A DNA stretch of 64,000 nt, taken from assembly GCA_040754915.1 (NCBI GenBank), contig JBFMCB010000001.1, positions 4,443 to 68,442 of the forward strand. The letters are read 5' to 3'. Positions within the stretch are counted from its first letter, which is position 1, and every line of letters begins with the position of its first letter. The position numbers and the translations under genes were made by a program. Below the pieces are notes generated by a model. That model was not told the DNA's origin. It made no database searches and saw nothing but the letters and a program-made list of their open reading frames with translations. Positions 14,416 through 59,684 of this stretch are shown one piece after another. The DNA comes from Chloroflexota bacterium. Lineage in GTDB: Bacteria > Chloroflexota > DTOL01 > JACQYG01.

Positions 14416-14432
14416 TCAGAAGCGAAAACAAG

Positions 14433-14458
14433 TAGGGCAGGGGGAACCCTGCCCTACT
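14433..14458 (+). terminator. GC-rich hairpin immediately after the lipoprotein stop (11-bp perfect stem GTAGGGCAGGG/CCCTGCCCTAC, GGAA loop); putative U-tract-less intrinsic terminator
   Basis: Perfect inverted repeat read directly from the sequence, 18 nt after the stop at 14415. Confidence 0.45.
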
Positions 14459-14677
14459 GCGTCAATGGCGGCTATTCATCGTCCTCAATACATTGTTAAG
14501 TTCACCCTCGTGCCCTTGCCCTCACCCGCGCTTCAGGGAATAGTCCAATATCCCGGCGACGATAAATACCAACCCCCTTCACCGCTTGTTGGTTATGAGG
14601 CGGCACTTCCATGCCGGGCTGGAGATCTCTAGAAGTGCAGCCGAAAAGCCGTTTTTACCGCAGAGCCCGCTGCCTGT

Positions 14678-14700
14678 GTCCCGGAGTGCAACTCCGGGAC
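14678..14700. repeat. palindromic repeat copy (GTCCCGGAGT-GCA-ACTCCGGGAC), inner-arm version of the window's REP-like family
   Basis: Perfect 10-bp arms; same inner arms as copies at 14737, 57540, 57746 and 58621. Confidence 0.7.
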
Positions 14701-14736
14701 GAGCGCAGAGATAGAAGAAAGATCCTTGCGAGCTCT

Positions 14737-14765
14737 GATGTCCCGGAGTTCAACTCCGGGACATC
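14737..14765. repeat. palindromic repeat copy (GATGTCCCGGAGTT-C-AACTCCGGGACATC)
   Basis: 29-bp perfect palindrome, 36 bp from the 14678 copy (paired arrangement like a BIME). Confidence 0.75.
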
Positions 14766-14854
14766 ACGTGGGGTTCTCGGCCGCATCTCTAGGACCGGCT
14801 AGATAGGGGAGATCAAGGCGCCCAAGTGATAGTTGGGAACAGAGTGAGAGCGAA

Positions 14855-14895
14855 GCGGGGAAGGATGGTGGAAATCCTTCCCCGCTTTCTTTTCG
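14855..14895. terminator. bidirectional intrinsic-terminator-like hairpin between convergent genes (GCGGGGAAGGAT-loop-ATCCTTCCCCGC followed by TTTCTTTTCG)
   Basis: 12-bp stem, 7-nt loop, T-rich tract on the plus strand; lies between the plus-strand lipoprotein gene and the minus-strand M1 peptidase gene whose stop is at 14905. Confidence 0.6.
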
Positions 14896-14904
14896 TGTTT
14901 CCTG

Positions 14905-37474: not shown

Positions 37475-40216
37475 CTACGCCGGCTGGCGATCCGCCAGGG
37501 GCGCTGCCGCCAGCCAGGCTCTGACGAAGGCCATCTCGTCCTCCAGTGATTCCACCTTCCCGTTCAGTTTAGCCTGATAAAGATCGTTTAAGAGGCGACG
37601 ATACACGGGCCCGGGCCGGAGGCCAAAGCTTTTCAAGGTTTCACCATTAACCTGGACCTTGAGCCACTTGAGCTTGTGGAGAAATAGCTCCACCGATTCT
37701 GAGACCGCAAACGGTAGCGGTTCCTCCGGTTTCCCGGGAACCTCATCGGTGAACCATAACACGTAGAGCAGTTCGGCTGGCGATTTCTGGTAGAGCGCGT
37801 AGATCGCTGTCGGCGACGGCCCTGGCTGTAGCGTTATCCTGGCCTTGCTAGAAAATTGTCCCAGCTCGCGCAGCAGCCGACTATTCTCACCGGTTATCTT
37901 CAGCCGACCGGTGAAGTCTACGACCTGGTCCTCTCTCATCGGGTATACCAGTAGCGCCAGGTAGACTCTAGGCAAGGAGCGCTGTGGCGCCAGGGCTGCG
38001 CGCGGGAATCGTTCGTTCCATTCCGCTATCTTCTCTCGGGCCTGAGCACAGTGCGAGCCCAGCCAGTCAGTATAGCGCAGCTCTCGATGCAGGTAAGCCA
38101 AGAGGCCGCACTGATCCAGTCGGCGGAGTATCTTCTCCGGCTCTTCTTCCTGCAGCGATAGATATAGTTCATGCCGCAGTCTCTCCCCGGAGACCCGTTC
38201 CAGGAGGTCCCGGGCGTCAACCATTAGCTCCTCCGTTCGTTTCTCGATCCTGAAGCCAAGCCTTTGCTCCAATCGCACCGCCCGGAGTATCCGGGTGGCA
38301 TCCTCCACGAAGCTCAGGCTATGAAGGACACGGATCAGTTTGCGATCAAGGTCCTTCTTGCCGCCGTAGAAGTCCACCAGCTCGCCATAGCGCTCGCGAT
38401 CCAGGCAGATGGCCATGGTGTTTATGGTGAAATCCCTGCGATATAGATCCTGCTTGAGAGAGCCGGCTTCCACCTCCGGCAGGGCCGCAGGGTGTTCGTA
38501 AAACTCGGTGCGGGCGGTCACGAAATCGATGGCCAGGGCGGCATGGCTGGAGGCCAGGCGGCGCTCGCTCACGTCGCCTATCTTCTCCCGGGGATGGCTG
38601 GGGGCCAGGGACAGCACCTCCCCGGGAGCCACCAGGGCTTCGGGCACTAACCATTTGGCTGTGCCGAAGCGCTCGTGAGCCTTGACCCGGCCGCCCAGCT
38701 CGGCCGCCAGCATACGGGCCAAGGCGATGGCGTCTCCCTCGACCACCAGGTCCAGGTCGAAGTTCGGTATGCCCAGGAGCAGGTCTCGCACTATGCCCCC
38801 TACCAGGTATAGGGAAGATCCCATATGCCTGGCAGCATGGCTGGCCCCTTGCAGGAGCTTCCGCAACGATGGTTGGAGGGCCTGGTCCAGTTGCGCCGCC
38901 AGATTGGGGTAACCCTTGGACCTGCCCGGGGGTAGCCCGCCCCAATGTGCGATGACGTCGGTGCGGGTCACTATGCCCACCAGTTGCCCGTTTTCCACCA
39001 CCGGCAACTGCCCCGCATCGTGCTCCATCATCAACTGCATGATCCTGGGCACCGGGAGGTCGGGGCTGATGGCCGGCACGTTCACGGTCATGTACATCCG
39101 CACCGCCGCGTTGCCCAGCCGGTGGTGTATGGCCCGGTCCAGGTCCCGGCGGGTGACGATGCCCATCAACCTCCCGTCCTGCACCACCGGCAGGCCTTCG
39201 TGGCCGTATCGCACCAAGAGAGATGCGGCCTCGCTAATGGTAGTATCCGGGGAAACACTTCGAGCCTGGCGGGTCATGATGGTGGAGGCCGTGGCGGCAG
39301 GCTTAATCTGGGAGCGAAGGCCCTGCCGCAGGCTTTCGGCGACCAAAGACAGCTCTCGGTCCTTCAACAGCGCCGCCGCGGCGCGATTGTGGCCGCCGCC
39401 TCCCCACGGGCGCAATATGGCCGCCACGTCGACGTAGTCGCTCTTGCTGCGGGCGACGATCTGCAGGTGGTGGCCCATCTGAACCAGGACGAAGGAGGCC
39501 TCGGCGTCGTAGAGCTCGTTTAAGCGGTGGGCCACGGTGGAGACCTCCTCCACGTATTCGGGGGACTGGGCAGCGGCGATGAGCACGTGGTGTCCCTGGA
39601 TGTCCTCGATCTTGGCCTCCCTGGCCAGTTGGTCGTAGAGCAATCGCTGTTTGCCGGTCAGGGGCCGGTTCAGGAAGCTGTTCAGCACTTGCAGGCTGGC
39701 CTCATGGGTCAGGAGCCAGGCTGCGCACCGGACGTCCTGGGAGGTGGTATTGATGTAGGTGAGGGAGCCCGTGTCCTCGTAAATGCCCAGCAATAGCAGG
39801 GTGGCCTCGGCCGGGGACAGCGGGACCTTCTTCTCCATGAGTTGCCTGACCAGAATGGCCGTGGTGGAGGCGACCTCTTCAGTGGTGTATGACATGCCTT
39901 CCGGTAGCTCCCGGTCCAGGGGGTGGTGGTCGATTATCTCCACCGGCAGCCCGGGCCGATGGATCCCGCTCTGAAACCCCTCCACCGCGGGCAAGTACTG
40001 GGTGTCCACCAGGATCACAGAATCTACGTCCTTATCAGGCAGCTCGTCGAGCTTTCTGAAGGGCAGATCGCCCCCGTACAGGGCCAGAAAGTCACGGAGG
40101 TTGCGATTGACGGCGCCCACCAATACCGGGATGGCGCCGGGGTAGAGCTTGGCCGCCGCCAGCATGGAGGCCAGGCCATCGAAGTCGGTATTAGGATGGG
40201 TCAGTATGAGACGCAT
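37475..40216 (-). CDS. multidomain DHH/DHHA1 phosphoesterase - tandem CBS - poly(A) polymerase/tRNA nucleotidyltransferase (CCA-adding family) protein
   Basis: Start at ATG 40216 (MRLILTHPNTDFDGLASMLAAAKLY = DHH); DHHA1 GGGH (RPWGGGGHNRAAA); two CBS domains; pol-beta NT motif LYLVGGIVRDLLLGIPNFDLDLVVEG and head-domain RRDFTINTMAI. Confidence 0.8.
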   Translation of the reverse strand: MRLILTHPNTDFDGLASMLAAAKLYPGAIPVLVGAVNRNLRDFLALYGGDLPFRKLDELPDKDVDSVILVDTQYLPAVEGFQSGIHRPGLPVEIIDHHPLDRELPEGMSYTTEEVASTTAILVRQLMEKKVPLSPAEATLLLLGIYEDTGSLTYINTTSQDVRCAAWLLTHEASLQVLNSFLNRPLTGKQRLLYDQLAREAKIEDIQGHHVLIAAAQSPEYVEEVSTVAHRLNELYDAEASFVLVQMGHHLQIVARSKSDYVDVAAILRPWGGGGHNRAAAALLKDRELSLVAESLRQGLRSQIKPAATASTIMTRQARSVSPDTTISEAASLLVRYGHEGLPVVQDGRLMGIVTRRDLDRAIHHRLGNAAVRMYMTVNVPAISPDLPVPRIMQLMMEHDAGQLPVVENGQLVGIVTRTDVIAHWGGLPPGRSKGYPNLAAQLDQALQPSLRKLLQGASHAARHMGSSLYLVGGIVRDLLLGIPNFDLDLVVEGDAIALARMLAAELGGRVKAHERFGTAKWLVPEALVAPGEVLSLAPSHPREKIGDVSERRLASSHAALAIDFVTARTEFYEHPAALPEVEAGSLKQDLYRRDFTINTMAICLDRERYGELVDFYGGKKDLDRKLIRVLHSLSFVEDATRILRAVRLEQRLGFRIEKRTEELMVDARDLLERVSGERLRHELYLSLQEEEPEKILRRLDQCGLLAYLHRELRYTDWLGSHCAQAREKIAEWNERFPRAALAPQRSLPRVYLALLVYPMREDQVVDFTGRLKITGENSRLLRELGQFSSKARITLQPGPSPTAIYALYQKSPAELLYVLWFTDEVPGKPEEPLPFAVSESVELFLHKLKWLKVQVNGETLKSFGLRPGPVYRRLLNDLYQAKLNGKVESLEDEMAFVRAWLAAAPLADRQPA

Positions 40217-40314
40217 GTCGGTTCCGCCGCCCGCACGCCTTAGAGCCTGATTAGGAGATGAGATCACTCCATAACCATTATAACACAAACTGCTGCATCT
40301 ATGCCCGCAGGCTG

Positions 40315-40342
40315 TTGACAAAAGTTCCCTCTATGGTATAAT
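40315..40342 (+). promoter_or_regulatory. consensus sigma-70 promoter (TTGACA-16-TATAAT) for the GntR-family gene
   Basis: Perfect -35 (40315-40320) and -10 (40337-40342) hexamers with 16-bp spacer, 39 nt upstream of ATG 40381. Confidence 0.65.
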
Positions 40343-40380: not shown

Positions 40381-41052
40381 ATGGAATCCCCTTTTCAGTT
40401 GGCCAGGGTTGAAGGGCCACTCTCGCTTAAGGACAAAGCCTACGCCGCCATCAAAGATGCCATACTCTCCCTCCAACTCAAGCCAGGCGAACCGCTGGTG
40501 GAAACCGAGTTGGCTGAGCAATTGGGCATTAGCAAGACGCCGGTGCGAGACGCACTACAGCAGCTGGAGCGAGGGGGATTCGTCACCCGGGTCCTGTTCA
40601 AGGGGACCTACGTTACCGAGGTGACCTTGAAGGACGTGAAGGAAGTCTTCCAACTCCGGGCTGTTTTGGAGGGCTTGGCCGCCCGCCTGGCCGCCCCCCT
40701 TCTTACCCCTGAGGAATGGGACGAGGGGGAGCGGCTGATCGGCACCGCAGAGGCTGCCCTGGCTCAAGGAAACCGGGAACTCTGCTCCCAACTGGGAAAA
40801 CAGTTCCACAACCTGGTCATCCAGAAGACGGACAACCAGCGTCTGATACCCATCCTCCACAATCTGGATGACCACCTGCAGCGTTTCCGTCTGGTCTCTG
40901 ACCAGATCAGCGGTCGCTTGGAGAAATCGGTCCAGGAGCATCGTCGGGTGTTGGAAGCGCTGCGGCAACGCGACCCCGCCCTGGCCGAGCAGGCCATGCG
41001 CGATCACCTTCACAGTGTGCTGCAAGATCTGTCTGAGGAGAAGGAACAATGA
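40381..41052 (+). CDS. GntR family transcriptional regulator (FadR/FCD subfamily)
   Basis: Start ATG 40381 after SD AGGAG; wHTH (LKPGEPLVETELAEQLGISKTPVRDALQQLERGGFV) and FCD-type helical C-domain. Confidence 0.85.
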   Translation: MESPFQLARVEGPLSLKDKAYAAIKDAILSLQLKPGEPLVETELAEQLGISKTPVRDALQQLERGGFVTRVLFKGTYVTEVTLKDVKEVFQLRAVLEGLAARLAAPLLTPEEWDEGERLIGTAEAALAQGNRELCSQLGKQFHNLVIQKTDNQRLIPILHNLDDHLQRFRLVSDQISGRLEKSVQEHRRVLEALRQRDPALAEQAMRDHLHSVLQDLSEEKEQ

Positions 41053-42779
41053 GAGGCAGCCAGGCTGTCGTGGAGATGCTCAAGGCGCACCAGGTGAGGT
41101 ATATCTTCGGCTTGCCCGGCGACACCAGCATGCCCCTCTATGATGCCCTGTATCGGGCCCGGGGTGAGGTCACCCATGTGCTGACCCGCGACGAGCGCTC
41201 GGCTTCCTTTATGGCCGATGTCTATGCGCGGGTGAGCTACCGTCCTGGCGTGTGCGAGGCTCCCAGCGGGGCCGGGGCTACCTACCTCGCCCCCGGGGTG
41301 GCCGAGGCCCATGCTTCCTCGATTCCGGTCATCGCCCTTACTACCGACATCCCTCTCTCCAACGAAGGCAAGAACGTGCTCACCGCTCTGAACCAGGAGG
41401 CGCTTTTCTCTCCCATTACTAAGTGGCGCGCTCTAGTCAAGAAAGCCGATCTGATCCCGGACATCATGCGCCGTGCCTTCCGCCTGGCCACGACTGGTCG
41501 TCCTGGGGCGGTGCAGATCACCTTGCCCAATGATGTACTGGATGAAGAGCTGGCCCATCCTGCCCTGCACGGCGATGATAACTGCACTGTCTATCCCGCT
41601 TACCGCATCCGCCCCAATGGCACGGTTGTGCGGCAGGCGGCGGAACTCCTGCTCCAGGCCGAGCGCCCGATCATCGTCGCTGGCGGGGGAGTGGTCAGCT
41701 CCCAGGCCTGGGCCGAATTGACCGCCCTGGCTGAGGCCTTGTCCATTCCCGTGGGCACCACCATCACCGGCAAGGGCGACATAGCCGAGGATCATCCGCT
41801 CAGCATTGGTGTAGTGGGAGGCAACGGGGGGCGGGACTACGCTAATTGCCTGGTGCAGGAGGCTGACCTCATCCTGTACGTGGGTTGCAAGACGGACTCG
41901 GTGACTACGGTCAACTGGACCCTGCCGGCCCCGGAGGCGGGCAAGACCATCATCCACCTGGACGTGGACCCGGGCGAGATTGGGAACAACTACCCCAGCG
42001 CGGTGGGCCTGGTCGGCGATGCCCGGCTGGCCCTGGCTGACCTACTGGAAGCGGTGCAGGTCAGGGCCGGCGGTAGTTCGGCCCTCGGTCAGGCCCGGCG
42101 GGATGAGATCGAGAAGCTGAGTCGCCGCTGGTGGTCCGAGGCCCAGGAAAAGATGACCTCCGACAGCGTGCCCATCAAGCCGCTGCGGGTGATCAAGGGG
42201 TTGGTCGACGCCCTGCCCAGGGACAGCATCATCGTCGCCGATGCCGGCACACCCACCCCCTTCGTCGCCGCTTACTTTGTCAGCCGGGCTGGGCGCCAGG
42301 TCATCATCCCGCGTGGCTACGGGGGACTGGGTTACGCCCTGCCCGGTGTGGTGGGAGCCAAGCTGGCCCAGCCGAAGGCCATCGTAGTCGGTCTTATGGG
42401 TGATGGCAGCTTCGGCATGTCCGCCGGCGAGCTGGAGACCATCGCCCGCCTGAAGCTGCCGGCGACCATCATCCAGTTCAACAACGCTTGCTTTGGCTGG
42501 ATCAAAGCCTTGCAAGAACTGTACCACCAGGGCAGGTATTTCTCCGTGGATTTCTCCGCCGATACCGACCACGCCGCCATTGCGCGGGGCTTCGGGCTGA
42601 ATGGCCTGCGGGTCGAGCAACCAGGCCACCTGGAGCCGGCCATCCGGCAAGCCCTGGCCAGCGATGTGGCCACCTTCATCGACGTGATCACCGAGTCGGA
42701 AGAGACCGAACTGCCACCGGTGACAAAGTGGGTTGAAGCAGCCAAGGGCAGAAAGCAAGAAAAAGCTGAATTGGCATAA
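41049..42779 (+). CDS. thiamine pyrophosphate-dependent enzyme (acetolactate synthase large subunit / sulfoacetaldehyde acetyltransferase-like)
   Basis: 576 aa; N-terminal Pyr domain (QVRYIFGLPGDTSMPLYDAL), central domain, C-terminal TPP-binding GDGSFGMSAGELETIARLKLPATIIQFNNACFGWI. ATGA overlap with the GntR gene. Confidence 0.8.
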   Translation: MRGSQAVVEMLKAHQVRYIFGLPGDTSMPLYDALYRARGEVTHVLTRDERSASFMADVYARVSYRPGVCEAPSGAGATYLAPGVAEAHASSIPVIALTTDIPLSNEGKNVLTALNQEALFSPITKWRALVKKADLIPDIMRRAFRLATTGRPGAVQITLPNDVLDEELAHPALHGDDNCTVYPAYRIRPNGTVVRQAAELLLQAERPIIVAGGGVVSSQAWAELTALAEALSIPVGTTITGKGDIAEDHPLSIGVVGGNGGRDYANCLVQEADLILYVGCKTDSVTTVNWTLPAPEAGKTIIHLDVDPGEIGNNYPSAVGLVGDARLALADLLEAVQVRAGGSSALGQARRDEIEKLSRRWWSEAQEKMTSDSVPIKPLRVIKGLVDALPRDSIIVADAGTPTPFVAAYFVSRAGRQVIIPRGYGGLGYALPGVVGAKLAQPKAIVVGLMGDGSFGMSAGELETIARLKLPATIIQFNNACFGWIKALQELYHQGRYFSVDFSADTDHAAIARGFGLNGLRVEQPGHLEPAIRQALASDVATFIDVITESEETELPPVTKWVEAAKGRKQEKAELA

Positions 42780-42813
42780 TGGCGGTGTCTGGTCTCCGCC
42801 CAGGGAGAAAGCG

Positions 42814-44100
42814 ATGCCAAGGGTTGTGGTCATCGGTGGTGGATGGGCCGGCTGTGCGGCGGCCATGTCGGCCAAACAGGCCGGGGCCGAGGTGATCTTG
42901 CTGGAGAGGGCCGACACCCTGTTGGGCTCGGGCCAGGTGGGTGGCATCATGCGCAACAACGGTCGCTTCACCGCCGCCGAAGAGATGATCGCTATGGGCG
43001 GCGGTGACCTGTTCAGGCTGACCGACCAGAACGCCCGGCATACGAACATCGAGTTTCCTGGCCACAAACACGCCAATCTGTACGATGTGGCCACCATGGA
43101 AGCCATCGTCCGCCGCTACCTGCAAGAAAAGGGGACGGAGATCTGGCTGATGGCCCGGGTGACCGAGGTGACCAGGGATGACGGCGCTATCGCGGCTGTC
43201 GCGGCAGAGAACGGGGATGCCATCGAAGGCGACGTGTTCGTGGAAACCACCGGCACCATGGGGCCCCAGGGCAACTGCCGCAAGTATGGCAACGGCTGTG
43301 CCATGTGCATCACCCGCTGCCCCAGCTTCGGCGGCCGCGTCAGCATCGCCGCCCGGGCTGGGGTGAAGGAGGTGATGGGACGGCGGCCCGGCGGGGGCTT
43401 CGGAGCCATGAGCGGCTCGTGCAAACTGAACCGGGAATCGGTGGATAGAAACATCGTCCGAGAACTCGATCGCACCGGCGTGGCGGTGATCCCGGTGCCC
43501 AAGGAACTGGCAGAGAAAGAAAAGGGACTGTTGGCCGTCAAGTGCTGCCAGCAATACGCTCTCAAGGAGTTCGCCGAGAATGTGGTGCTGCTCGACACCG
43601 GCCACGTCAAGCTGATGACGCCCTTCTATCCTCTAGCCGACCTGCGACGCATCCCCGGCCTGGAGAACGCCCGCTACGAAGATCCCTACGCCGGCGGCAT
43701 CGGTAATTCAATTCGCTACCTGGCCATGTCGCCGCGAGACAACACCCTCAAGGTCGAAGGCCTGGAAAACCTGTTCTGCGCTGGCGAGAAAGCAGGGCTG
43801 CTGGTGGGCCACACCGAGGCCATTTGTACCGGCGTCCTGGCCGGCCACAACGCCGTGCGCCACGCCCTGGGCAGGCCCCTGCTGGAGCTGCCGCGCAGCA
43901 CGGCCATCGGCGATGCCATCGCCTTCGTGCGAGAGCAGATGCAGACCGAGGAGGGGCTGATGCAGAAGTACACCTTCTCCGGTTCGGTGTACTTCGAGCG
44001 CATGAAGGAACTGGGGCTCTACACCACAGACGCAAACGCCATCCGCCAACGCGTGCGGGCAGCAGGCTTCGAGAACTTCTTCGCCCATCACGTGGTATAA
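42814..44100 (+). CDS. FAD-dependent oxidoreductase, short GidA/TrmFO-like family
   Basis: Start ATG 42814 (SD GGGAGA); VVVIGGGWAGCAAAMSAKQAGAEVILLE FAD-binding motif; C-terminal LFCAGEKAGLLVGHTEAICTGVLAGHNAV resembles the GidA-family C-terminus; Cys-rich insert CRKYGNGCAMCITRCP. Confidence 0.65.
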   Translation: MPRVVVIGGGWAGCAAAMSAKQAGAEVILLERADTLLGSGQVGGIMRNNGRFTAAEEMIAMGGGDLFRLTDQNARHTNIEFPGHKHANLYDVATMEAIVRRYLQEKGTEIWLMARVTEVTRDDGAIAAVAAENGDAIEGDVFVETTGTMGPQGNCRKYGNGCAMCITRCPSFGGRVSIAARAGVKEVMGRRPGGGFGAMSGSCKLNRESVDRNIVRELDRTGVAVIPVPKELAEKEKGLLAVKCCQQYALKEFAENVVLLDTGHVKLMTPFYPLADLRRIPGLENARYEDPYAGGIGNSIRYLAMSPRDNTLKVEGLENLFCAGEKAGLLVGHTEAICTGVLAGHNAVRHALGRPLLELPRSTAIGDAIAFVREQMQTEEGLMQKYTFSGSVYFERMKELGLYTTDANAIRQRVRAAGFENFFAHHVV

Positions 44101-44208
44101 CCGTCTCTGCGATCGGGTGGATCTTTCCGGGGAAGCAAGGAGGTGAGATATGACAAGAGCCCATTGCTAACCTCCATGTATCTCGGTTCATGAAGAGGAG
44201 AGAAACAG

Positions 44209-45771
44209 ATGAAAGCAAGGTTCTATTGGCTACTGACCATGGTGGTTCTGGCTTCGCTGTTGCTGTCCGCCTGCGGGCCAACGCCCACGCCGGTGCCCCC
44301 CACGCCCGTACCACCCGCGGCCACACCGGTGCCTCCAACTCCCACGCCCAAACCAGTGCAGGTGGTCATCGCCATCGGCGGCGACCCGTCCACCCTCGAC
44401 CCCCAGTACGCTGATGACGGGAACGAGCGGGCAGTGAACGACAACGTCTATGAGATGTTGCTCTTCCGCGATCCTAAGACCATGGCCATTGCGCCCGGCC
44501 TGGCCGAGTCCTACAAGCAGGTCGACGCCACCACCTGGCGCCTGACTTTGAAGAAGGGGATCAAGTTCCACAACGGGGAAGAGCTCAACGCCGCAGCCGT
44601 CGTCTTCAGCGTCAAGCGGATTCTTGATCCGGCCTTCAAGTCGCAGCAACTATCCTACGTGGAAGGCATCACCGACGCCAAGGCGGTGGACGACTACACG
44701 GTGGACATCATCACCAGCGGCCCGCTGCCCATCCTGCCGGTCCGCCTGACCTGGCTGAAGATCGTGCCGCCAAAGTATGCCACGGAGAAGGCGGCCGAGT
44801 TTCCCAACTACCCCGTCGGGACCGGGCCCTACAAGTTCGTGGAGTGGAAGAAGGGCGATCACGTCACCCTGGAGGCCAACCCGGCCTACTGGGGTGGAGC
44901 ACCCAAGATCAATAGGGTGATCATACGCCCCATCCCGGAGGAAGCCACACGGCTGGCGGCGTTGAAGGCCGGCGAGGTGGACCTGGTGAGGGGCCTCATC
45001 CCCGAGTACGTCAAGGATGTGCCCAAAGCAGCCCACATGCCTGGATTGGAGTTTCCCTGGATCCGCATCAACACCAGGAAGGGTAAACTGGCAGACCTGA
45101 AGGTGCGCCAGGCACTGAACCACGCCGTTGACAAAGAGGCCCTGGCCAAGAGTCTCTATGGTGGCTTCGCCGTGCCTGCCGATGGGCAACTGCTGACCAA
45201 AGGGCACTTCGGCTACAACCCGGGGGTCAAGGCTTTCCCCTATGACCTGACCAAGGCCAAGGCGCTGCTCAAGGAGGCTGGAGCGGTGGGGATGTCGGTG
45301 GATCTCATTGGCGAGAGCGGCCGCTGGCTCAAGGACAAGGAGCTGATCGAGGCCGTGGCCGGGCAGCTCACCGAGGCCGGGCTCAAGGTCAACGTCAAGA
45401 TCGTGGAATGGAAGGCCTGGCTAGATCTGCTCTTCGCCGGCGCGGAGAAGGCTCCCGATCTCCAGTTCTCTTCCCACGACAACGAGCTTCTAGATGCCAG
45501 CCGCACCCTTTCCGGGCTCTTCACCAGCAAGGGCAGCCAGGCCGCCTATGCCAATCCTGAGGTGGACAAGCTCGTCGAGGCGGCGGCAACGGAGACCGAT
45601 CCGGCCAAGCGGGAGGACATGTACCGCAAGGCGGTCAAGATCATCAACGAGGAGGCAGCCTGCATCTTCCTGCTCAACCTGGAGAACATCTATGGGCTGT
45701 CCAAGCGTCTGGAGTGGACGCCACGGCTTGACGGCCGCGTGTTGGTCAAGGAAATGACGGTCAGTCAGTAA
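44209..45771 (+). CDS. ABC transporter substrate-binding lipoprotein, family 5 (peptide/nickel/opine type)
   Basis: 520 aa; lipoprotein signal (LLLSAC) plus Pro/Thr linker; SBP_bac_5 features (TLDPQ..., GPYKFVEWKKGDHVTLEANPAYWGG). Confidence 0.85.
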   Translation: MKARFYWLLTMVVLASLLLSACGPTPTPVPPTPVPPAATPVPPTPTPKPVQVVIAIGGDPSTLDPQYADDGNERAVNDNVYEMLLFRDPKTMAIAPGLAESYKQVDATTWRLTLKKGIKFHNGEELNAAAVVFSVKRILDPAFKSQQLSYVEGITDAKAVDDYTVDIITSGPLPILPVRLTWLKIVPPKYATEKAAEFPNYPVGTGPYKFVEWKKGDHVTLEANPAYWGGAPKINRVIIRPIPEEATRLAALKAGEVDLVRGLIPEYVKDVPKAAHMPGLEFPWIRINTRKGKLADLKVRQALNHAVDKEALAKSLYGGFAVPADGQLLTKGHFGYNPGVKAFPYDLTKAKALLKEAGAVGMSVDLIGESGRWLKDKELIEAVAGQLTEAGLKVNVKIVEWKAWLDLLFAGAEKAPDLQFSSHDNELLDASRTLSGLFTSKGSQAAYANPEVDKLVEAAATETDPAKREDMYRKAVKIINEEAACIFLLNLENIYGLSKRLEWTPRLDGRVLVKEMTVSQ

Positions 45772-45844
45772 GGGCCTGTCCGAAGACCCGGGCGGTGAGC
45801 CCTCGGCCTCGACCAGTTTCCAGATCGGCACCAAACGGCACGCA

Positions 45845-45883
45845 GCGCTCAGGCGAGGGTTCGATCCTCGCCTGAGCGCCATC
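45845..45883 (+). other. intercistronic perfect hairpin resembling a tRNA acceptor-stem/T-arm minihelix with 3' GCCA (GCGCTCAGGCGAGG-GTTCGAT-CCTCGCCTGAGCGC-CA)
   Basis: 14-bp perfect stem, 7-nt loop containing TTCGA; 3' strand reads CCTCG (T-stem) + CCTGAGC (7-nt acceptor strand) + G + CCA; located between the SBP and first permease genes. Confidence 0.5.
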
Positions 45884-45896
45884 AGCAAATTGGGGG

Positions 45897-46823
45897 ATGA
45901 CGATGACCAACTATCTGATCAGACGTCTCATCTGGTCGGTCCTGGTGGTGGTGGGCGTCTCGTTGATCGTCTTCATCGTCACCCATGCCATCGGTGACCC
46001 AGTGCGCATCATGCTTCCCCTCGAGGCCAGCCAGGAGGAGTACCTGACCATGCGCCACGCCTGGGGCTTCGATGACCCGCTGTACGTGCAATTCTGGCGC
46101 TTCGCCGTCAAGGCAGCGCGGGGAGACTTCGGTGACTCCCTGTGGCAGCGCACGCCGGCCCTGGCTCTGGTCATAGATAGGTTGCCGGCATCCTTCCTGC
46201 TATCCTTTGTGGCCATCGCCCTCGCCGTTCTCGGCTCCATCCCTTTGGGTATCCTGGCCAGCTTGAGACTCCGCTCGCTCCTCGATCGTCTATGCGTCAT
46301 GGGATCGCTCCTGGGGGTCTGCATCCCTGTCTTCTGGCTGGGTATCATGCTCATCATGTTCTTCGCCGTGGACCTGGGTTGGTTCTACACCTCCGGTTAC
46401 GGTACCTGGAAGCACCTGGTGCTACCGGCGGTGACCCTGGCCGCCCTGCCCATGGGCCGCATCACCCAGATCGTGCGCTCCAGCATGCTGGACGAGCTGC
46501 ACCGCCAATACATGACCACGGCTCGGGCTAAGGGACTGGCCGAGGGCTATATCATCGTCCGCCACGCTTTGAAGAACGCCGCCATTCCCATCGTCACCCT
46601 GGCGGCCTGGGAACTGACCCGTATGCTGGCCGGCTACACCATCATTGTGGAGAAGGTCTTCGCCTGGCCGGGCTTCGGATTGCTGGCCATGCAGGCCATC
46701 GAGCGCCACGATCTCCCGCTCATCCAGGCTGACGTCTTCGTAGTGGCTCTGATCGTGGTGGTGCTCAACATCGTCATTGATTTCGTCTACGCGGCGCTGG
46801 ACCCGAGGGTTCGCTTTGAGTGA
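45897..46823 (+). CDS. ABC transporter permease (DppB/OppB-like)
   Basis: 308 aa; N-terminal YLIRRLIWSVLVVVGVSLIVFIV, EAA-loop region (ARAKGLAEGYIIVRHALKNA), 6 TM. Confidence 0.85.
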   Translation: MTMTNYLIRRLIWSVLVVVGVSLIVFIVTHAIGDPVRIMLPLEASQEEYLTMRHAWGFDDPLYVQFWRFAVKAARGDFGDSLWQRTPALALVIDRLPASFLLSFVAIALAVLGSIPLGILASLRLRSLLDRLCVMGSLLGVCIPVFWLGIMLIMFFAVDLGWFYTSGYGTWKHLVLPAVTLAALPMGRITQIVRSSMLDELHRQYMTTARAKGLAEGYIIVRHALKNAAIPIVTLAAWELTRMLAGYTIIVEKVFAWPGFGLLAMQAIERHDLPLIQADVFVVALIVVVLNIVIDFVYAALDPRVRFE

Positions 46824-47788
46824 GGAGAGTAACGGCCATGAAAAGTTCACCGGCCAGTGCGGCGGTCCTGCCGCGAGTGAGGGCCATCGAGGAAGAACGG
46901 TTTGTCTACTGGCGCAACCTCTGGAAGCTGATTCAGGATCTGATCCGGGATCGGGTGGCTCTGTTGGGTGTTCTCATCGTCCTCACCGTGGTTTTCGCGG
47001 CGGTGGCTGCACCCCTGGTCGCGCCCTATGACCCCACCAAGCAGAACATCGCCAGGCGACTGACGCCGCCGGCCTGGGCCGCCAAGGGAGAGGCCGGGTA
47101 CTGGCTGGGCACAGACCAGTTGGGGAGAGACGTGTTGAGCCGCATCATCTACGGCGGCCGCGTGTCCCTCACCGTTGGCCTGAGCGTGGTGGCCATCGCC
47201 GGCAGCTTTGGCATTCTTCTCGGCCTCGTCTCCGGCTACTTCGGCGGCCGTGCCGATGACGTTCTCATGCGCCTGACCGACGTCCAGACCGCCTTCCCCG
47301 GCCTGCTTTTGGCCCTGACCATCATTACCATGATCGGGCCCAGTGTGCGCAACATCATCATCGTCCTGTCCATCAACGGCTGGATGGTCTACGCCCGCAT
47401 CACGCGGGGCATCATGCTTTCTTTGCGCGAGACACCCTTCATTGAGGCAGCTCGGGCCATCGGCTGCTGCGACCGGCGCATCATCTTCCGCCATGCTCTG
47501 CCCAACCTGCTGTCGCCCTTACTGACCCTGGGCACCCTGGAACTGGCGCGCATCATCCTGGCCGAGGCCTCGCTGAGCTTCCTGGGGCTGGGGGTGCAGC
47601 CGCCAGCCGCCTCGTGGGGCTTGATGATCGCCGACGGGCATCAGTATATCACCCGTGGTTGGTGGCTGGTGACTTTTCCCGGCCTGGCCATCGCCATCAC
47701 CGTCTTCGGGGTGAACCTGGTGGCCAGTTGGCTCAGGACATATTCCGATCCCAGTCAGCGGTATCGTCAGATCAGGACGGTGGAGTAA
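46820..47788 (+). CDS. ABC transporter permease (DppC/OppC-like)
   Basis: 322 aa; ATGA overlap with the previous permease; conserved region GTDQLGRDVLSRIIYGGRVSL and EAA-like motif. Confidence 0.85.
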   Translation: MRRVTAMKSSPASAAVLPRVRAIEEERFVYWRNLWKLIQDLIRDRVALLGVLIVLTVVFAAVAAPLVAPYDPTKQNIARRLTPPAWAAKGEAGYWLGTDQLGRDVLSRIIYGGRVSLTVGLSVVAIAGSFGILLGLVSGYFGGRADDVLMRLTDVQTAFPGLLLALTIITMIGPSVRNIIIVLSINGWMVYARITRGIMLSLRETPFIEAARAIGCCDRRIIFRHALPNLLSPLLTLGTLELARIILAEASLSFLGLGVQPPAASWGLMIADGHQYITRGWWLVTFPGLAIAITVFGVNLVASWLRTYSDPSQRYRQIRTVE

Positions 47789-47807
47789 ACGAATCACAGG
47801 GAGGAAG

Positions 47808-48350
47808 ATGTTCAAGAAGATAATGGTTCCATTGGATGGCTCAGAGCTGGCCGAGGCGGCACTGCCGGTGGTGGAGGGACTGGCGACCTGTCTGGGGTCA
47901 GAGGTCATCCTGGTACAGGTGGTTCCAAGTCCCCGGGGACGTTCCGCGGCCAAGTTTCGCCCCTTTTCGGCCGATCTTCCCGTGGCCGTCCCCCGCGCCC
48001 GGGAGGATGTGGAGATGGCCCGGCATCCCATCTACAAAGACCAGGAGATGATCAGCCTGAAGGCGAAGGCGAAGGTTTCCCTGGCCCGGGCCGAGAAGCG
48101 GCTGCGGGATCAGGGCATCCAGGTGAAGGTGGATGTCCTCTTCGGCCGGCCGGCCGAGGAGATCATCGCCTACGCTGAGCAGGCGGGTGTGGATGTAATC
48201 CTCCTCTCCACCCATGGAGAAAGCGGCCTGGGTCCCTGGAACATGGGGGCTACGGCCGAGCGGGTGCTGCGGGGAGCCAACGTTCCTGTCCTTCTGGTGC
48301 GGCCGGCCCAGGCGCGGGTCCGGCGGGGGGACTGGCCGGGTTCTCTATAA
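47808..48350 (+). CDS. universal stress protein UspA family
   Basis: KKIMVPLDGSELAEAAL...VDVILLSTHGESGLGPWNMGATAERVLRGANVPVLLVRP (ATP-binding G-2x-G-9x-G(S/T) motif). Confidence 0.8.
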   Translation: MFKKIMVPLDGSELAEAALPVVEGLATCLGSEVILVQVVPSPRGRSAAKFRPFSADLPVAVPRAREDVEMARHPIYKDQEMISLKAKAKVSLARAEKRLRDQGIQVKVDVLFGRPAEEIIAYAEQAGVDVILLSTHGESGLGPWNMGATAERVLRGANVPVLLVRPAQARVRRGDWPGSL

Positions 48351-48368
48351 TTCTAAGGAGGTCTCACA

Positions 48369-49280
48369 TTGCGACCAACTGGCTCCTGGGTGGCCCTGGT
48401 CACCCCCTTCACCGAAGCCAGCGAGGTGGACTTTGCCGGCTTCGAACGCTTGATAGACTTCCAGGTCGGGAACGGCACCGCCGGCCTGCTCCTCATGGGC
48501 TCCACCGGCGAGCCGACGCTGCTCGCTTTGGACGAGCGGCGGGAGATCCTCGACCGGGTGTGTGCCTACGCCAAAGGCAAGATCCCCGTCTTCGCCGGCA
48601 CCACCTGCGGCAGCACCGGCGAGACCATCGCCCTAAGCCGCTACGCCGAGCGAGCCGGGGCCGACGGGCTGCTCCTGGTCGTCCCAGCCTACAGCCAGCC
48701 GCCCCAGGAGGGCCTCTACGCCCACTTCAAGGCCGTGGCCGAGGCGGTGAGCATCCCCATCGCTATCTACAACAACCCCTCCCGCGTGGGGGTGAACATT
48801 GACCCGGCCACCATCATCAGGTTGGCCGAGCTGCCCAACATCGTAGCCGACAAAGAGGCTACGGGCAACATCGGCCAACTGGTGGAGGTGCTCAGGGGCA
48901 CCAACGGCCGGCTGCATCTTCTTTGCTGCGATTACCCCGGCTATGGGTTGATCATCCCTACCCTGGCTATGGGCGGTCACGGCACGGCCAACATCGCCGG
49001 CAACGTCATCCCCCGGGAGATGGCCGAGATGTCCCAGCCGTGGCGGTCGTGGGACGACGTAGGGCGGACGAGAGGGCTCTATTTCAGGTTCGTGCCTTTG
49101 CTCTCGGCCTTGTACAGCCTGTCCAATCCCATCGCCGTGAAGGCGGCCCTGCGGCTGATGGGCCTGCCCGGCGGCCCGGTGCGCCGCCCGCTGGTGGAGC
49201 TGGGTGGCGACAAGCTGCGTCAGCTTGACCAGTTGCTGGAGAGCCTGGGGGTAAAGGCGGAGTATGGTGTCGGTGTCTGA
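48369..49280 (+). CDS. dihydrodipicolinate synthase (DapA) family lyase (exact substrate unknown)
   Basis: TTG start after SD AAGGAGG; VALVTPF, GLLLMGSTGE, catalytic-Lys region IVADKEATGN, Tyr region YNNPSRVG. Confidence 0.75.
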   Translation: MRPTGSWVALVTPFTEASEVDFAGFERLIDFQVGNGTAGLLLMGSTGEPTLLALDERREILDRVCAYAKGKIPVFAGTTCGSTGETIALSRYAERAGADGLLLVVPAYSQPPQEGLYAHFKAVAEAVSIPIAIYNNPSRVGVNIDPATIIRLAELPNIVADKEATGNIGQLVEVLRGTNGRLHLLCCDYPGYGLIIPTLAMGGHGTANIAGNVIPREMAEMSQPWRSWDDVGRTRGLYFRFVPLLSALYSLSNPIAVKAALRLMGLPGGPVRRPLVELGGDKLRQLDQLLESLGVKAEYGVGV

Positions 49281-50655
49281 CCTCCGGCCAGGTCCTCATC
49301 CCCGCCGCTGGCTGATCCTGGCCACCGTCCTCATCGGCACCCTGACCGGCACCCTGGGCAACAGCATGGCCAACGTGGCCCTGCCGGCCATCATGGACCA
49401 CTTCTCTGTGGACATCGGCCAGGCCACGTGGGTGGTGACGGTCTATATCCTGCTCTTCGCCGTGCCCCTGCCCGTCTTCGGCCGCCTGGGCGACATGTAT
49501 GGCTACAAGCGCATCTACCTGGTCGGCATGAGCGTCTTCGCCTTCGCCGCCCTCCTGGCTGCCCTGGCCCCCACTTTTCCCGCCCTCATCGCCTTTCGCG
49601 CTCTGCAAGGATTGGCCAACGCTCCCACCTTGCCCTCGGTCATGGCCATCGTTGCCTACGTTTTCCCGCCCCAGGAGCGGGGCCGGGCCATGGGGGTGTG
49701 GGCCCTGGTTAATAGCTCGGCCCACGCCATCGGCCCGCCCCTGAGCGGCTTCCTGACACAGTATCTGGGCTGGCCGGCGATGTTTTACGTCAATGTCCCG
49801 CTCTGTGTCGTGGGGGCGATATTCATCTGGCGTCTGGTGCCGCCCGATGCCAGGCGCGGTGGCGGCAGCTTCGACTACATCGGGGCCATCACCCTCACCC
49901 TGGCCACCCTGACCCTCATGTTCAACCTGACCCAAGGGCGCAAAGCGGGTTGGGCTTCGCCGACGGGCATCGCCTTGTGGGCGATCTTCATCGGCCTGAT
50001 GGGGGCTTTCCTGATCGCCGAGAGGACCGTCAGGTCGGCCTTCGTCGAGCTGAGCCTTTTTGGCAACCGCCCCTACACTGCGGCCACGGTCGTGGTATCG
50101 TTGCAACTCTTCTGCCAGTTCGGCCTGGCTCTGATCATGCCTCTCTTTCTCATTCGCATCCAGGGCTACACCAGCGGCCAGGCAGGACTATTGGTCTTTC
50201 CTTTGCCTATCGCCATGGCCCTGGTGGCACCTCTGGCCGGCCGCCTGACCGATAGCTACGGCTGTCGGCTGTCCTGCATCAGCGGGATGGGGCTTGTGGC
50301 CCTGGCGGGGTTAGGGCTGCTTCCCCTGGGGGCGGGCACACCGGCCTGGTACGTGGCGGCTGCACTCATGCTGATGGGTGTGGGCATGGGCATGATCCAA
50401 TCGCCTACGGCGGCGGCGGTGACCCATGCAGTGGCTCAGGAGCGGTTAGGGTTGGCCCTGGGGCTGTTCAATATGTTCCGCTTCGTGGGAGGGACCCTGG
50501 GGGCGACGGTGTTCGGCATGATCCTGGGGAGCTTCAGCGCCAGCCTGGACCTGGTCGGTGCCTTCCACCTGGATTTCGGGCTGGTGGTGGGACTAGCCCT
50601 GGTAGCCTCCCTAGTGGCACTGAATGTGCCGGAAAGGGTGAAGGACGAACGATAG
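49264..50655 (+). CDS. MFS transporter (DHA2-like, 14 TMS)
   Basis: 463 aa; motif A-like GRLGDMYGYKRIYLVGM, many hydrophobic helices. Confidence 0.8.
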   Translation: MVSVSDLRPGPHPRRWLILATVLIGTLTGTLGNSMANVALPAIMDHFSVDIGQATWVVTVYILLFAVPLPVFGRLGDMYGYKRIYLVGMSVFAFAALLAALAPTFPALIAFRALQGLANAPTLPSVMAIVAYVFPPQERGRAMGVWALVNSSAHAIGPPLSGFLTQYLGWPAMFYVNVPLCVVGAIFIWRLVPPDARRGGGSFDYIGAITLTLATLTLMFNLTQGRKAGWASPTGIALWAIFIGLMGAFLIAERTVRSAFVELSLFGNRPYTAATVVVSLQLFCQFGLALIMPLFLIRIQGYTSGQAGLLVFPLPIAMALVAPLAGRLTDSYGCRLSCISGMGLVALAGLGLLPLGAGTPAWYVAAALMLMGVGMGMIQSPTAAAVTHAVAQERLGLALGLFNMFRFVGGTLGATVFGMILGSFSASLDLVGAFHLDFGLVVGLALVASLVALNVPERVKDER

Positions 50656-50663
50656 GAGGTAAG

Positions 50664-51137
50664 ATGCCCAAGGAACCACATCTTGGGGGGATACTGGACA
50701 AGTACCCCTACGCCGCCAAGGACGACGTGGAGGGCCGAGTCGTGTGCCTGCTGGAGGCCCAGTCGGAGAACCGGGGCATGGAGTTGGCCACCCACCTCTC
50801 CCGGGCCGTGCCTCGAGGCCAGATTCACGAGCTGGTGCTGACCGACCAGGCCGAGGCGGCGCCGGGTAGCGTGGTGGATCGGGTGGCCTACGTTGGCTTC
50901 TTCGAAGTGGAGCATGGCGGGCTGATCCTGGTCGGAGACCGGGTGACAGTAGACGGCCAGGAACTGGGCAAGGTGGCAGGGTTCGATGAGACTCACTTCC
51001 CCAACCACATGAACGTGCTGCTCAAGGCCCGGGTGCGACAGACGGGGGTGGAATTAGGGGTGAAGCTGGGGGCCAAAGTAGTGTTCAGGATGGCGGAGCA
51101 GGCGGCTCACAACTATGGTATAATGTTGGGGTTTTAG
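50664..51137 (+). CDS. hypothetical protein (157 aa)
   Basis: Clean ORF with ATG and plausible RBS; no motif recognised with confidence. Confidence 0.5.
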   Translation: MPKEPHLGGILDKYPYAAKDDVEGRVVCLLEAQSENRGMELATHLSRAVPRGQIHELVLTDQAEAAPGSVVDRVAYVGFFEVEHGGLILVGDRVTVDGQELGKVAGFDETHFPNHMNVLLKARVRQTGVELGVKLGAKVVFRMAEQAAHNYGIMLGF

Positions 51138-57532: not shown

Positions 57533-57539
57533 GCCGCCG

Positions 57540-57576
57540 CCCCGATGTCCCGGAGTTGAACTCCGGGACATCGGGG
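57540..57576. repeat. 37-bp perfect palindrome CCCCGATGTCCCGGAGTT-G-AACTCCGGGACATCGGGG (full-length REP-like copy), intergenic etfA / Fe-S oxidoreductase
   Basis: Read directly; 18-bp arms. Confidence 0.8.
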
Positions 57577-57602
57577 TCATCCTCGTCCCATAGGGGGCTT
57601 TC

Positions 57603-59684
57603 ATGGGGTCGATCTTCCGCGACACCTTCTGGAACGTACCGGTGTGGGCTCAGGCCGTCCATTACCTCCTGTCCATAGCCGCCCTGCTCATTCTCAGCTA
57701 CGGCGTCTACCGGCGGGTCTCCCTCTGGCGCCAGGGCCAGAAAACCCCCCGATGTCCCGGAGTTAAACTCCGGGACATCGGGGGTTCTTTACTAGTAAAG
57801 AAGCGGGTGAAGGCCTTTCTGCTCTACGCCATCGCACAGTTGCGCCTGCTCAGGGAGAGGTATCCGGGGATAATGCACCTCTTTATCTTCTGGGGCATGG
57901 TGGTCCTCTTCCTGGGCACGGCCACGGTCACCCTGGACTATGACGTGGCCCACCTGATATTCCGGACCCAGTTTCTAACCGATGGATTCTACCTGGTTTT
58001 CAAGCTTACTTTGGACATCTTAGGCGCCTTGCTCATCGTTGGCGTGCTCCTGGCGGCTTACCGGCGCTACGTCCTCCGCCCTTCGAGGTTGGATAACCTC
58101 TGGCAGGATGCCTATCAGCTCGGGATGCTCTTCGCCATCGGGCTCATGGGCTTTCTCCTGGAGGCCATGCGCCTCGCGGCCTTTAAGCAGCCGGAGGTGG
58201 CCATCTGGTCTCCGGTGGGCTATCTTCTGGCTCAGCCCTTCTGGGGCGTCACTAAGGAGACCATCCGGCCCTACTATGTGGGAACCTGGTTCGTCCACTC
58301 CACCATGGCCCTGGTCTTCATCGCCAGCCTGCCCTACACTAAGCTCTGGCACATCGTCGCCTCTCCGACCAACATCTTCTTCCGCTCCTTGAGGCCAGCC
58401 GGGGAGCTCTTGCCCATCGAGAACCTCGAGGAACAGGAGACCTTCGGTGTGGGGAAGTTCGAGGAATTCACCTGGAAACAGCGCCTGGATTTCGATGCCT
58501 GTACCCGCTGTGGCCGCTGCCAGGACGCCTGTCCGGCCTGGGCCAGCGGCGCCTCGCTCTCCCCCAAGAAACTGATCCTGGAGCTGCAGCAATGCATGCT
58601 GGAAAAGCCCACCCTGGATACCCCCGATGTCCCCCCGATGTCCCGGAGTTCAACTCCGAGACATCGGGGGACATCGGGCTCGAAAGACCTGCACGGGAAG
58701 GTGGTGGCCGCCGACGAGCTCTGGGCCTGCACCACCTGCCGCGCCTGTGTGCAGGAGTGCCCGGTCTTCATCGAGCACGTGGATACCATTGTGGACATGC
58801 GCCGCTATCTCACCCTCTCCGAGGGGGCGGTGCCGGCGACTACCGCCACCACCCTGAAGCAGATGACTAACCAAGGTAATCCATGGGGGCTCTCCAAGAA
58901 TGACCGGCTGAAGTGGGCTGAGGGTCTGGACGTGAAGGCCATCGCCCCGGGCCAGGAGGTGGAGTATCTCTATTGGGTGGGGTGTTCGGCAGCTTACGAC
59001 GCGCGAAACCAGAAGGTGGCAAAGGCCATGGTGCGGGTGCTTAAGGCGGCCGGGGTGGACTTCGCCATCCTGGGCAACCAGGAGAGATGCTGTGGGGACT
59101 CTGCCCGGCGCTTAGGTGAGGAGTACCTCTTCCAGACTCTGGCCATGGAGAACATCGATAATCTAAAGAAATACCGTTTCCAGAAGATCGTCACTGCCTG
59201 CCCCCACGGCTACAACACGATCAAGAACGAGTACCCGCAGCTCGGCGGAAATTACACCGTCATCCACCACACTGAGTTATTGGCCCAGTTGGTCCAGGAG
59301 GGAAGGCTCGAGCTTTCCAGGCCTTTATACAAGAACATCACCTACCACGATTCGTGCTACCTGGGCCGGTACAACGACATCTTCCAGGCACCCCGCCAGG
59401 TATTGGCCGCCCTCCCCGGCGCTCTGCTCAAGGAGATGGACCGGTCTGGCGATCGGGGCTTCTGCTGCGGCGGTGGCGGCGGCCAGATGTGGATGGAGGC
59501 CAAGGTAGAAAAACGGGTGAACCACATTCGGCTGGAGGATGCCCTGTCGATCAAGCCGGACTGTGTGGGCACCGCCTGCCCCTTCTGCCTGACCATGTTC
59601 GTGGACGCGGCGAAGGTCAAGGGCATCGAAGACTCCTTACCGGTAAAAGACGTGGTGGAGCTCATCGCCGAAGCCTTGGTTTAG
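57603..59684 (+). CDS. membrane-anchored Fe-S oxidoreductase (NarI-like N-terminal membrane domain, 2x[4Fe-4S] ferredoxin motifs, two CCG/HdrD-like Cys-rich domains); putative Etf:quinone oxidoreductase
   Basis: 693 aa; 5 N-terminal hydrophobic helices; CTRCGRCQDACP and CTTCRACVQECP cluster motifs; CCG-domain motifs (CSAAYDARNQ...CCGDSA; CYLGRYN...GFCCGGGGG). Gene order acdh-etfB-etfA-FeS matches syntrophic butyrate oxidiser loci as I recall them. Contains two in-frame palindromic-repeat insertions. Confidence 0.85.
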   Translation: MGSIFRDTFWNVPVWAQAVHYLLSIAALLILSYGVYRRVSLWRQGQKTPRCPGVKLRDIGGSLLVKKRVKAFLLYAIAQLRLLRERYPGIMHLFIFWGMVVLFLGTATVTLDYDVAHLIFRTQFLTDGFYLVFKLTLDILGALLIVGVLLAAYRRYVLRPSRLDNLWQDAYQLGMLFAIGLMGFLLEAMRLAAFKQPEVAIWSPVGYLLAQPFWGVTKETIRPYYVGTWFVHSTMALVFIASLPYTKLWHIVASPTNIFFRSLRPAGELLPIENLEEQETFGVGKFEEFTWKQRLDFDACTRCGRCQDACPAWASGASLSPKKLILELQQCMLEKPTLDTPDVPPMSRSSTPRHRGTSGSKDLHGKVVAADELWACTTCRACVQECPVFIEHVDTIVDMRRYLTLSEGAVPATTATTLKQMTNQGNPWGLSKNDRLKWAEGLDVKAIAPGQEVEYLYWVGCSAAYDARNQKVAKAMVRVLKAAGVDFAILGNQERCCGDSARRLGEEYLFQTLAMENIDNLKKYRFQKIVTACPHGYNTIKNEYPQLGGNYTVIHHTELLAQLVQEGRLELSRPLYKNITYHDSCYLGRYNDIFQAPRQVLAALPGALLKEMDRSGDRGFCCGGGGGQMWMEAKVEKRVNHIRLEDALSIKPDCVGTACPFCLTMFVDAAKVKGIEDSLPVKDVVELIAEALV
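57746..57784. repeat. 39-bp perfect palindrome CCCCCGATGTCCCGGAGTT-A-AACTCCGGGACATCGGGGG located in-frame inside the Fe-S oxidoreductase CDS (encodes TPRCPGVKLRDIGG)
   Basis: Read directly; lies in the loop after the first TM helix; reading frame uninterrupted. Confidence 0.8.
57785..57802. repeat. CTAG-centred perfect palindrome TTCTTTACTAGTAAAGAA (copy 3 of 3), in-frame inside the Fe-S oxidoreductase CDS immediately after the REP-like copy
   Basis: 18-bp perfect palindrome abutting 57746..57784; encodes SLLVKK. Confidence 0.6.
58621..58678. repeat. about 58-bp nested palindrome (CCCCCGATGT + CCCCCCGATGTCCCGGAGTT-C-AACTCCGAGACATCGGGGG + ACATCGGG) in-frame inside the Fe-S oxidoreductase CDS between the two ferredoxin-type Cys motifs
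   Basis: Outer-arm unit CCCCGATGT duplicated; one arm mismatch (CCGAG vs CCGGG); encodes ...DTPDVPPMSRSSTPRHRGTSGS... Confidence 0.8.

Follow-up and report, generated by a model that had tools for sequence, protein, structure and literature searches.

Does the perfect hairpin that lies between the substrate-binding protein (SBP) gene and the permease gene of a Chloroflexota ABC operon imitate a tRNA, or does it serve as a plain stabiliser of the message in front of it? The hairpin is found in the window, which here means the whole stretch of DNA that was analysed, 64,000 nucleotides (64 kb) in length. A sequence-only reading had presented it as a tRNA minihelix (acceptor stem, T-arm and GCCA), and offered a 3'-stabilising stem-loop for the SBP transcript or the remnant of a tRNA 3' end as alternatives.

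The same reading placed the hairpin between the SBP and permease genes of an ABC operon, and the Pfam-supported flanking genes agree. These genes are part of a co-directional cluster in the order GntR/FCD regulator, TPP enzyme, FAD oxidoreductase (GIDA-like flavoprotein), SBP, permease, permease, Usp, DHDPS and MFS. The SBP-permease gap (125-131 nt) is the only real spacer of the cluster, since the remaining junctions measure 0-19 nt or overlap. The hairpin starts 73 nt past the SBP stop codon and ends 23 nt ahead of the start of the DppB-like permease gene; it leaves the Shine-Dalgarno-like sequence of the permease free. Orthologous permeases begin M[T/V]NYLIRRL, in agreement with the start codon given in the table. 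The weaker stem-loop that is predicted right behind the SBP stop codon is absent from more distant orthologues.

Features of the SBP-permease junction in the window
Feature	Position	Strand	Basis or remark
SBP_bac_5 gene (substrate-binding protein, peptide/nickel type; upstream cistron)	44209..45771	+	Pfam E = 1.7e-85
Weaker stem-loop right behind the SBP stop codon	45772..45802	+	predicted in spacer fold
Intercistronic RNA hairpin	45845..45879	+	fold, complementarity, perfect-stem count, orthologue comparison
Hairpin 5' arm	45845-45858		GCGCTCAGGCGAGG
Hairpin loop	45859-45865		GTTCGAT, 7 nt
Hairpin 3' arm	45866-45879		CCTCGCCTGAGCGC
Unpaired CA completing the apparent GCCA (45878-45881)	45880..45881	+	G45878 and C45879 belong to the helix
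Shine-Dalgarno-like GGGGGA for the permease	45892..45897	+	5 nt ahead of the ATG at 45903
DppB-like BPD_transp_1 permease gene (downstream cistron)	45903..46823	+	ORF from 45897, likely start 45903
DppC-like OppC_N/BPD_transp_1 permease gene	46820..47788	+	overlaps the preceding stop codon

Several further observations concern the surroundings of the junction. The SBP-permease-permease cluster has no adjoining ABC ATPase genes, as Usp, DHDPS and MFS come after the permeases; no ABC ATPase family matches are found among the larger ORFs scanned at 33-58 kb. On the minus strand, about 5.5 kb upstream of the hairpin, positions 37475-40321 encode a 948-aa protein with DHH, CBS and PolyA_pol domains (CCA-adding enzyme / poly(A) polymerase family); it has no evident link to the hairpin. 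An exact-sequence look-up of the window's own SBP gave no record. A 98% identical protein occurs in a Chloroflexi MAG, and the nearest proteins come from uncultured Chloroflexota MAGs. In the 98%-identical MAG (L001; GCA_016234455.1, JACRBP010000170.1, positions 4458-4471), the contig stops 14 nt past the SBP stop codon, just short of the structured spacer. The strong secondary structure may have broken the assembly there, or the contig may end at that point by chance.

The 37-nt string GCGCTCAGGCGAGGGTTCGATCCTCGCCTGAGCGCCA occurs once in the 64-kb window, at 45845-45881. Its two 14-nt arms are 100% complementary and stand 7 nt apart, so the perfect 14-bp helix that had been claimed is there. 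The span first assigned to it, 45845-45883, begins at the right base and runs 2 nt too far at its end, taking in an extra TC. The predicted RNA fold of the 37-mer has an energy of -32.6 kcal/mol, compared with a mean of -12.7 for dinucleotide shuffles (z = -7.2), and none of 200 shuffles folds as stably. In the minimum free energy structure given by RNAfold, a G-U and a U-A pair shut the 7-nt loop, which leaves 16 bp and a UCG triloop. Just 12 perfect stems of at least 10 bp are present in the window, and this hairpin is among the strongest of them; it is also the most stable 44-nt fold of positions 41000-51000. About 0.003 perfect 14-bp stems with a loop of 3-9 nt are expected by chance in 64 kb at 61% GC, as estimated from base composition. 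On account of its fold energy, the shuffles, the rarity of perfect stems and this low expectation, the hairpin is a real, non-random structure.

Exact-protein look-ups, together with a scan of genomes and another of metagenomes, supplied the orthologous operons; tblastn and the conservation of gene order served to check their orthology. The metagenome scan with the permease alignment gave 5 loci only; the orthologue set was therefore filled up by exact-protein look-ups. The order GIDA-SBP-perm-perm-Usp-DHDPS/MFS is conserved across the orthologues, and L002, L003 and L010 have the same gene order as the cluster in the window.

The nearest relative, L010 (SBP 97% identical), has an identical stem and the loop TTCGAT, which is one base shorter. 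The 14-bp stem is also identical in L002 (SBP 76%), where the loop is CTTCCCTC and the tail is GCCCA. L016 (permease 91%) keeps the stem core GCTCAGGCG/CGCCTGAGC and has a different top, GGGG/CCCC, with the loop GTGTA and the tail ATCC; L017 (permease 86%) shares this core, top and tail and has a different base, AT/AT, and the loop GCAC. In L003/L004 (SBP 80%) the base reads TCAGGTG/CACCTGA, which includes a further C-G to U-A change, the top is longer and the loop is TTC. L003 thus retains a base of the form TCAGGYG/CRCCTGA with an expanded top. In more distant orthologues this place is taken by unrelated hairpins: in L018 (GGGCTGGGCCTC...), L022 (GCGCTGGCGGGGG-CGCGAT) and L027 (GTTGGTGCAGGAG-CTCGA), and in L023, L028, L029 and L032. 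These last four, from another branch of the orthologues, have a second hairpin type in common: its stem core, GGGCGGGGCC/GGCCCCGCCC, is conserved, and its loop is free (AAGAGC, GGTATT, GCGT).

Rates of change between the window and L002 make a stronger argument than pair counts. All 28 stem bases are identical between the two, although in the neighbouring permease gene four-fold-type third codon positions agree at only 47%; outside the stem the spacer cannot be aligned, and the loops are wholly different. In the five aligned orthologues 98.6% of cells are paired, compared with 34-49% in slid registers, and a 9-bp stem core is invariant. Compensatory double changes (GC to AU, CG to UA and AU to GC) occur in 3 of the 14 pairs; since the other 11 are invariant and the sample is small (5-7 sequences from about three lineages), this covariation is supportive, not decisive. 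The pair counts leave out L022 and L003, whose hairpin is expanded, because MAFFT could not align them in register; covariance model R1, built from the five orthologues, scores L022 at 23.6 bits and does not detect L003. Because the stem is fully identical at 47% synonymous identity while the loop and the spacer are unalignable, it is the helix that selection maintains, and the loop and the tail, which give the tRNA look, can vary freely. This is the opposite of what a mimic of a T-loop and CCA end would predict.

Structure persists here even where the sequence is replaced. In 13 of 15 orthologous loci, each spanning 3-10 kb, no 44-nt fold anywhere is more stable than the one in the SBP-permease spacer, and at least five unrelated stem sequences are found among these spacers. 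In L030 a long-range 12-bp stem stands in place of a local hairpin. The hairpin is not indispensable, as L021 (49-nt spacer) has a weak hairpin only, and L020, which is more distant, has none in its short spacer. It usually starts 9-30 nt past the SBP stop codon, the exceptions being the window (73 nt) and L010 (72 nt); this distance ties it to the 3' end of the SBP cistron, not to the ribosome-binding site of the permease.

The comparative evidence favours one of the roles first suggested, a plain 3'-stabilising stem-loop for the SBP transcript. The hairpin is probably an intercistronic stabiliser or attenuator that uncouples SBP from permease expression. A stable stem-loop lies 3' of the upstream SBP cistron, between co-directional genes, and across five sequences its helix is conserved with compensatory changes and its loop is variable. 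Transcription presumably continues past the SBP gene into those for the permeases. After a cut by an endonuclease, or a stochastic stop, further downstream, a GC-rich hairpin of 14-16 bp would block 3'-to-5' exonucleases, and the SBP-only mRNA would then outlive the distal permease part. Alternatively or additionally, the hairpin may halt a fraction of polymerases. Either route would give more soluble binding protein than membrane subunits. The hairpin is likely to be part of the operon mRNA and to alter the SBP:permease ratio.

The strong conservation of the stem could also mean that its core is bound or cut by a specific factor, such as an RNA-binding protein, an RNase III-type endonuclease for double-stranded RNA, or a regulator that binds DNA as a dimer and controls an internal promoter. 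The identity of the whole stem in L002 despite near-saturated synonymous sites, the invariant 9-bp core and the GntR/FCD regulator gene at the head of the cluster are all consistent with such a factor. This explanation is nevertheless unlikely. Since completely different stems are found at the same place in L018, in L023, L028, L029 and L032, and in L027, no single stem sequence is required, and structural constraint alone makes stems evolve slowly. The half-site is not enriched in the window, with 17 matches (up to 2 mismatches) compared with 13.4 expected. FadR/FCD-type GntR regulators have operators of the GT-N-AC type; the palindrome is unlike these, and the region ahead of the SBP gene contains no half-sites related to it. 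A more elaborate proposal has the sequence of the invariant core recognised by a dedicated endonuclease or RNA-binding protein that would set the SBP:permease stoichiometry in this Chloroflexota lineage, and adds that, only in the sub-lineage of the window and L010, the tRNA-like loop and tail could recruit a tRNA-processing enzyme. It is quite improbable; if core recognition were true, the hairpin would be more than a passive exonuclease barrier.

The hairpin is unlikely to be an ordinary intrinsic terminator or one of the generic repeated palindromes (REP/BIME/MITE-type). Its GC-rich, perfectly palindromic sequence and its intergenic place suit either identity, and a genuine family of repeated palindromes, different in sequence, is present in the window. 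The generic recurrence that would mark a REP is not seen, however, as the hairpin is single-copy. A search with the 37-mer that allowed up to 3 mismatches found one copy in the window; covariance model R1 gives the target 60.9 bits and the next hit in the window 11.7 bits. The single-copy statement covers 64 kb of the source genome, and one copy is present in the genome of the 97%-identical relative L010, a MAG. Of 185,579 species genomes, only 11 have the 11+11 stem pattern (3-12 nt loop), each at a single site, and L010 alone among them is orthologous; the other sites lie in unrelated taxa and contexts, which is consistent with chance GC-rich hairpins. The terminator reading is rejected because the U-tract is missing. 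The tail of the hairpin is CATCAGCAAATT, a terminator scan of 43500-51000 is negative at the hairpin, and no T-run follows the hairpin in any orthologue. Canonical hairpins with a T-run do occur elsewhere in the window, at 14852-14888 (+) and 14458-14431 (-).

One of the chance-like matches falls in a similar setting. In an uncultured Oscillospiraceae genome (L009; CANRIU010000004.1, 5494-5521), the same 11-bp stem, CTCAGGCGAGG/CCTCGCCTGAG, with the loop TTTTTA, lies between a Dpp/Opp-type SBP gene (24% identity) and a permease gene (33%), about 20 nt ahead of the permease start. This is probably a coincidence among about 10 chance hits.

Other palindromes in the window deserve description in their own right. 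The repeated family consists of a 40-nt element, CCCCCCGATGTCCCGGAGTT-N-AACTCCGGGACATCGGGGG, at 14677-14766, 57538-57577, 57745-57784 and 58631-58670; its half-site has 8 matches in the window compared with 0.17 expected, and the element is absent from all 33 fetched loci. Two copies lie inside a 693-aa ORF (57603-59684; NarI-like/4Fe-4S/CCG Fe-S oxidoreductase). Both are translated in frame, as ...PRCPGVKLRDIGG... and ...SRSSTPRHRGTSG..., and one of them is within a stretch that matches a 4Fe-4S dicluster domain. In being in-frame insertions these copies resemble Rickettsia palindromic elements. Another copy of the repeated palindrome is located in the spacer between convergent genes at 14415-14905, together with one terminator-like site per strand. 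These are the two T-run sites given above, and each is nearer to the stop codon of the opposite-strand gene than to that of its own gene.

The tRNA-minihelix mimic, which would be cut by RNase P (or RNase Z) and would so separate SBP mRNA from permease mRNA, is very unlikely. A 12-bp helix, TTCGA in the loop and a GCCA can all be read in the window and in L010. The proposed parsing into a 7-bp acceptor stem, a 5-bp T-stem, a discriminator base and CCA does not fit the letters, which divide into 9+5 in the 5' arm and 5+7 in the 3' arm. Only CA is unpaired, because the supposed discriminator G45878 and the first C (C45879) pair with C45846 and G45845. The sequence-only reading rightly admitted a shift in the T-loop register: in the register that yields CCA, the loop is G54-T55-T56-C57-G58-A59-T60 and not T54-Psi55-C56...A58. 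The canonical register brings a mispair into the T-stem (A50/G64), and the tail is then C-CAT, with no CCA behind it.

Folding and tRNA models, which had been proposed as a check, give no tRNA-like match. ARAGORN finds no tRNAs in the 64-kb window. In an Rfam cmscan of 45500-46200 (E<=10), neither the tRNA clan nor any tRNA-like family comes up, and the matches obtained are chance ones to generic miRNA hairpin models; the loop that should resemble a T-loop closes to a triloop. The letters on which the resemblance depends are also not conserved: the loop is one base short in L010 and different in L002, L016 and L017, and the last three have other tails (GCCCA in L002, ATCC in L016 and L017). 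In combining RNase Z with CCA the idea is also at odds with itself, since cleavage by RNase Z is disfavoured by a 3' CCA, which acts as an anti-determinant. On the sequences compared, the tRNA-like features are coincidental and confined to the window and L010. The idea was not unreasonable a priori, because RNase P and RNase Z are among the specialised endonucleases with targets in some E. coli mRNAs, intergenic regions of operons included (reviewed in PMC3997798; its refs 42, 43, 45).

It is extremely improbable that the hairpin is the 3' end of a tRNA gene left as the attachment-site scar of an integrative element, a reading whose one support is the resemblance of GGTTCGATCC...GCCA and whose parent tRNA would end ...GTTCGATCCTCGCCTGAGCGCCA: the gene order on both sides, which no inserted element interrupts in orthologues with as little as 76% SBP identity, and the lack of any tRNA gene in the window argue against it, a tRNA 3' half would not bring a 5' acceptor strand abutting the T-stem (here the hairpin is perfect), and the 22-mer TTCGATCCTCGCCTGAGCGCCA from the 3' half is unmatched in 2.9 million viral contigs.

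The stabiliser or attenuator reading has modest consequences, with little importance beyond annotation. Orthologous Dpp/Opp-type operons of uncultured Chloroflexota keep a strong hairpin without a U-tract directly after the SBP gene, and this would extend a classical enterobacterial theme, the intercistronic stem-loop with unequal expression of an ABC operon, to a poorly studied phylum. The locus also advises caution: chance can give a GC-rich hairpin both a TTCGA loop and a CCA close by, and comparison with one close relative is enough to expose it.

Three kinds of known system can be compared with the hairpin. Rho-independent terminators and attenuators likewise have a GC-rich hairpin at the end of a cistron, but here no T-run stands behind the stem, in the window or in any orthologue. 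With tRNA minihelices and RNase P substrates the window shares a continuous GC-rich helix of at least 12 bp, a pyrimidine-rich loop with TTCGA and a nearby CCA; it differs in its shifted T-loop register, its partly paired NCCA, the silence of tRNA models and the lack of conservation of the tRNA-like letters in orthologues. RNase P cleavage in operon intergenic regions is attributed to Li and Altman 2003, as cited in PMC3997798.

The closest likeness is to the REP stem-loops of E. coli malE-malF and Salmonella hisJ-hisQ. As in these operons, a stem-loop without a U-tract lies just 3' of the binding-protein cistron and before the permease cistrons, and an excess of binding protein would be expected. 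Newbury et al. 1987 reportedly dealt with malE-malF. The window differs in that its hairpin is single-copy and locus-specific, with no genome-wide repeat family, and in that its host is an uncultured Chloroflexota lineage. REP hairpins set 3' of malE raise MalE expression (PMC4942690), and transcripts that contain REP sequences are stabilised against decay (PMC10100675).
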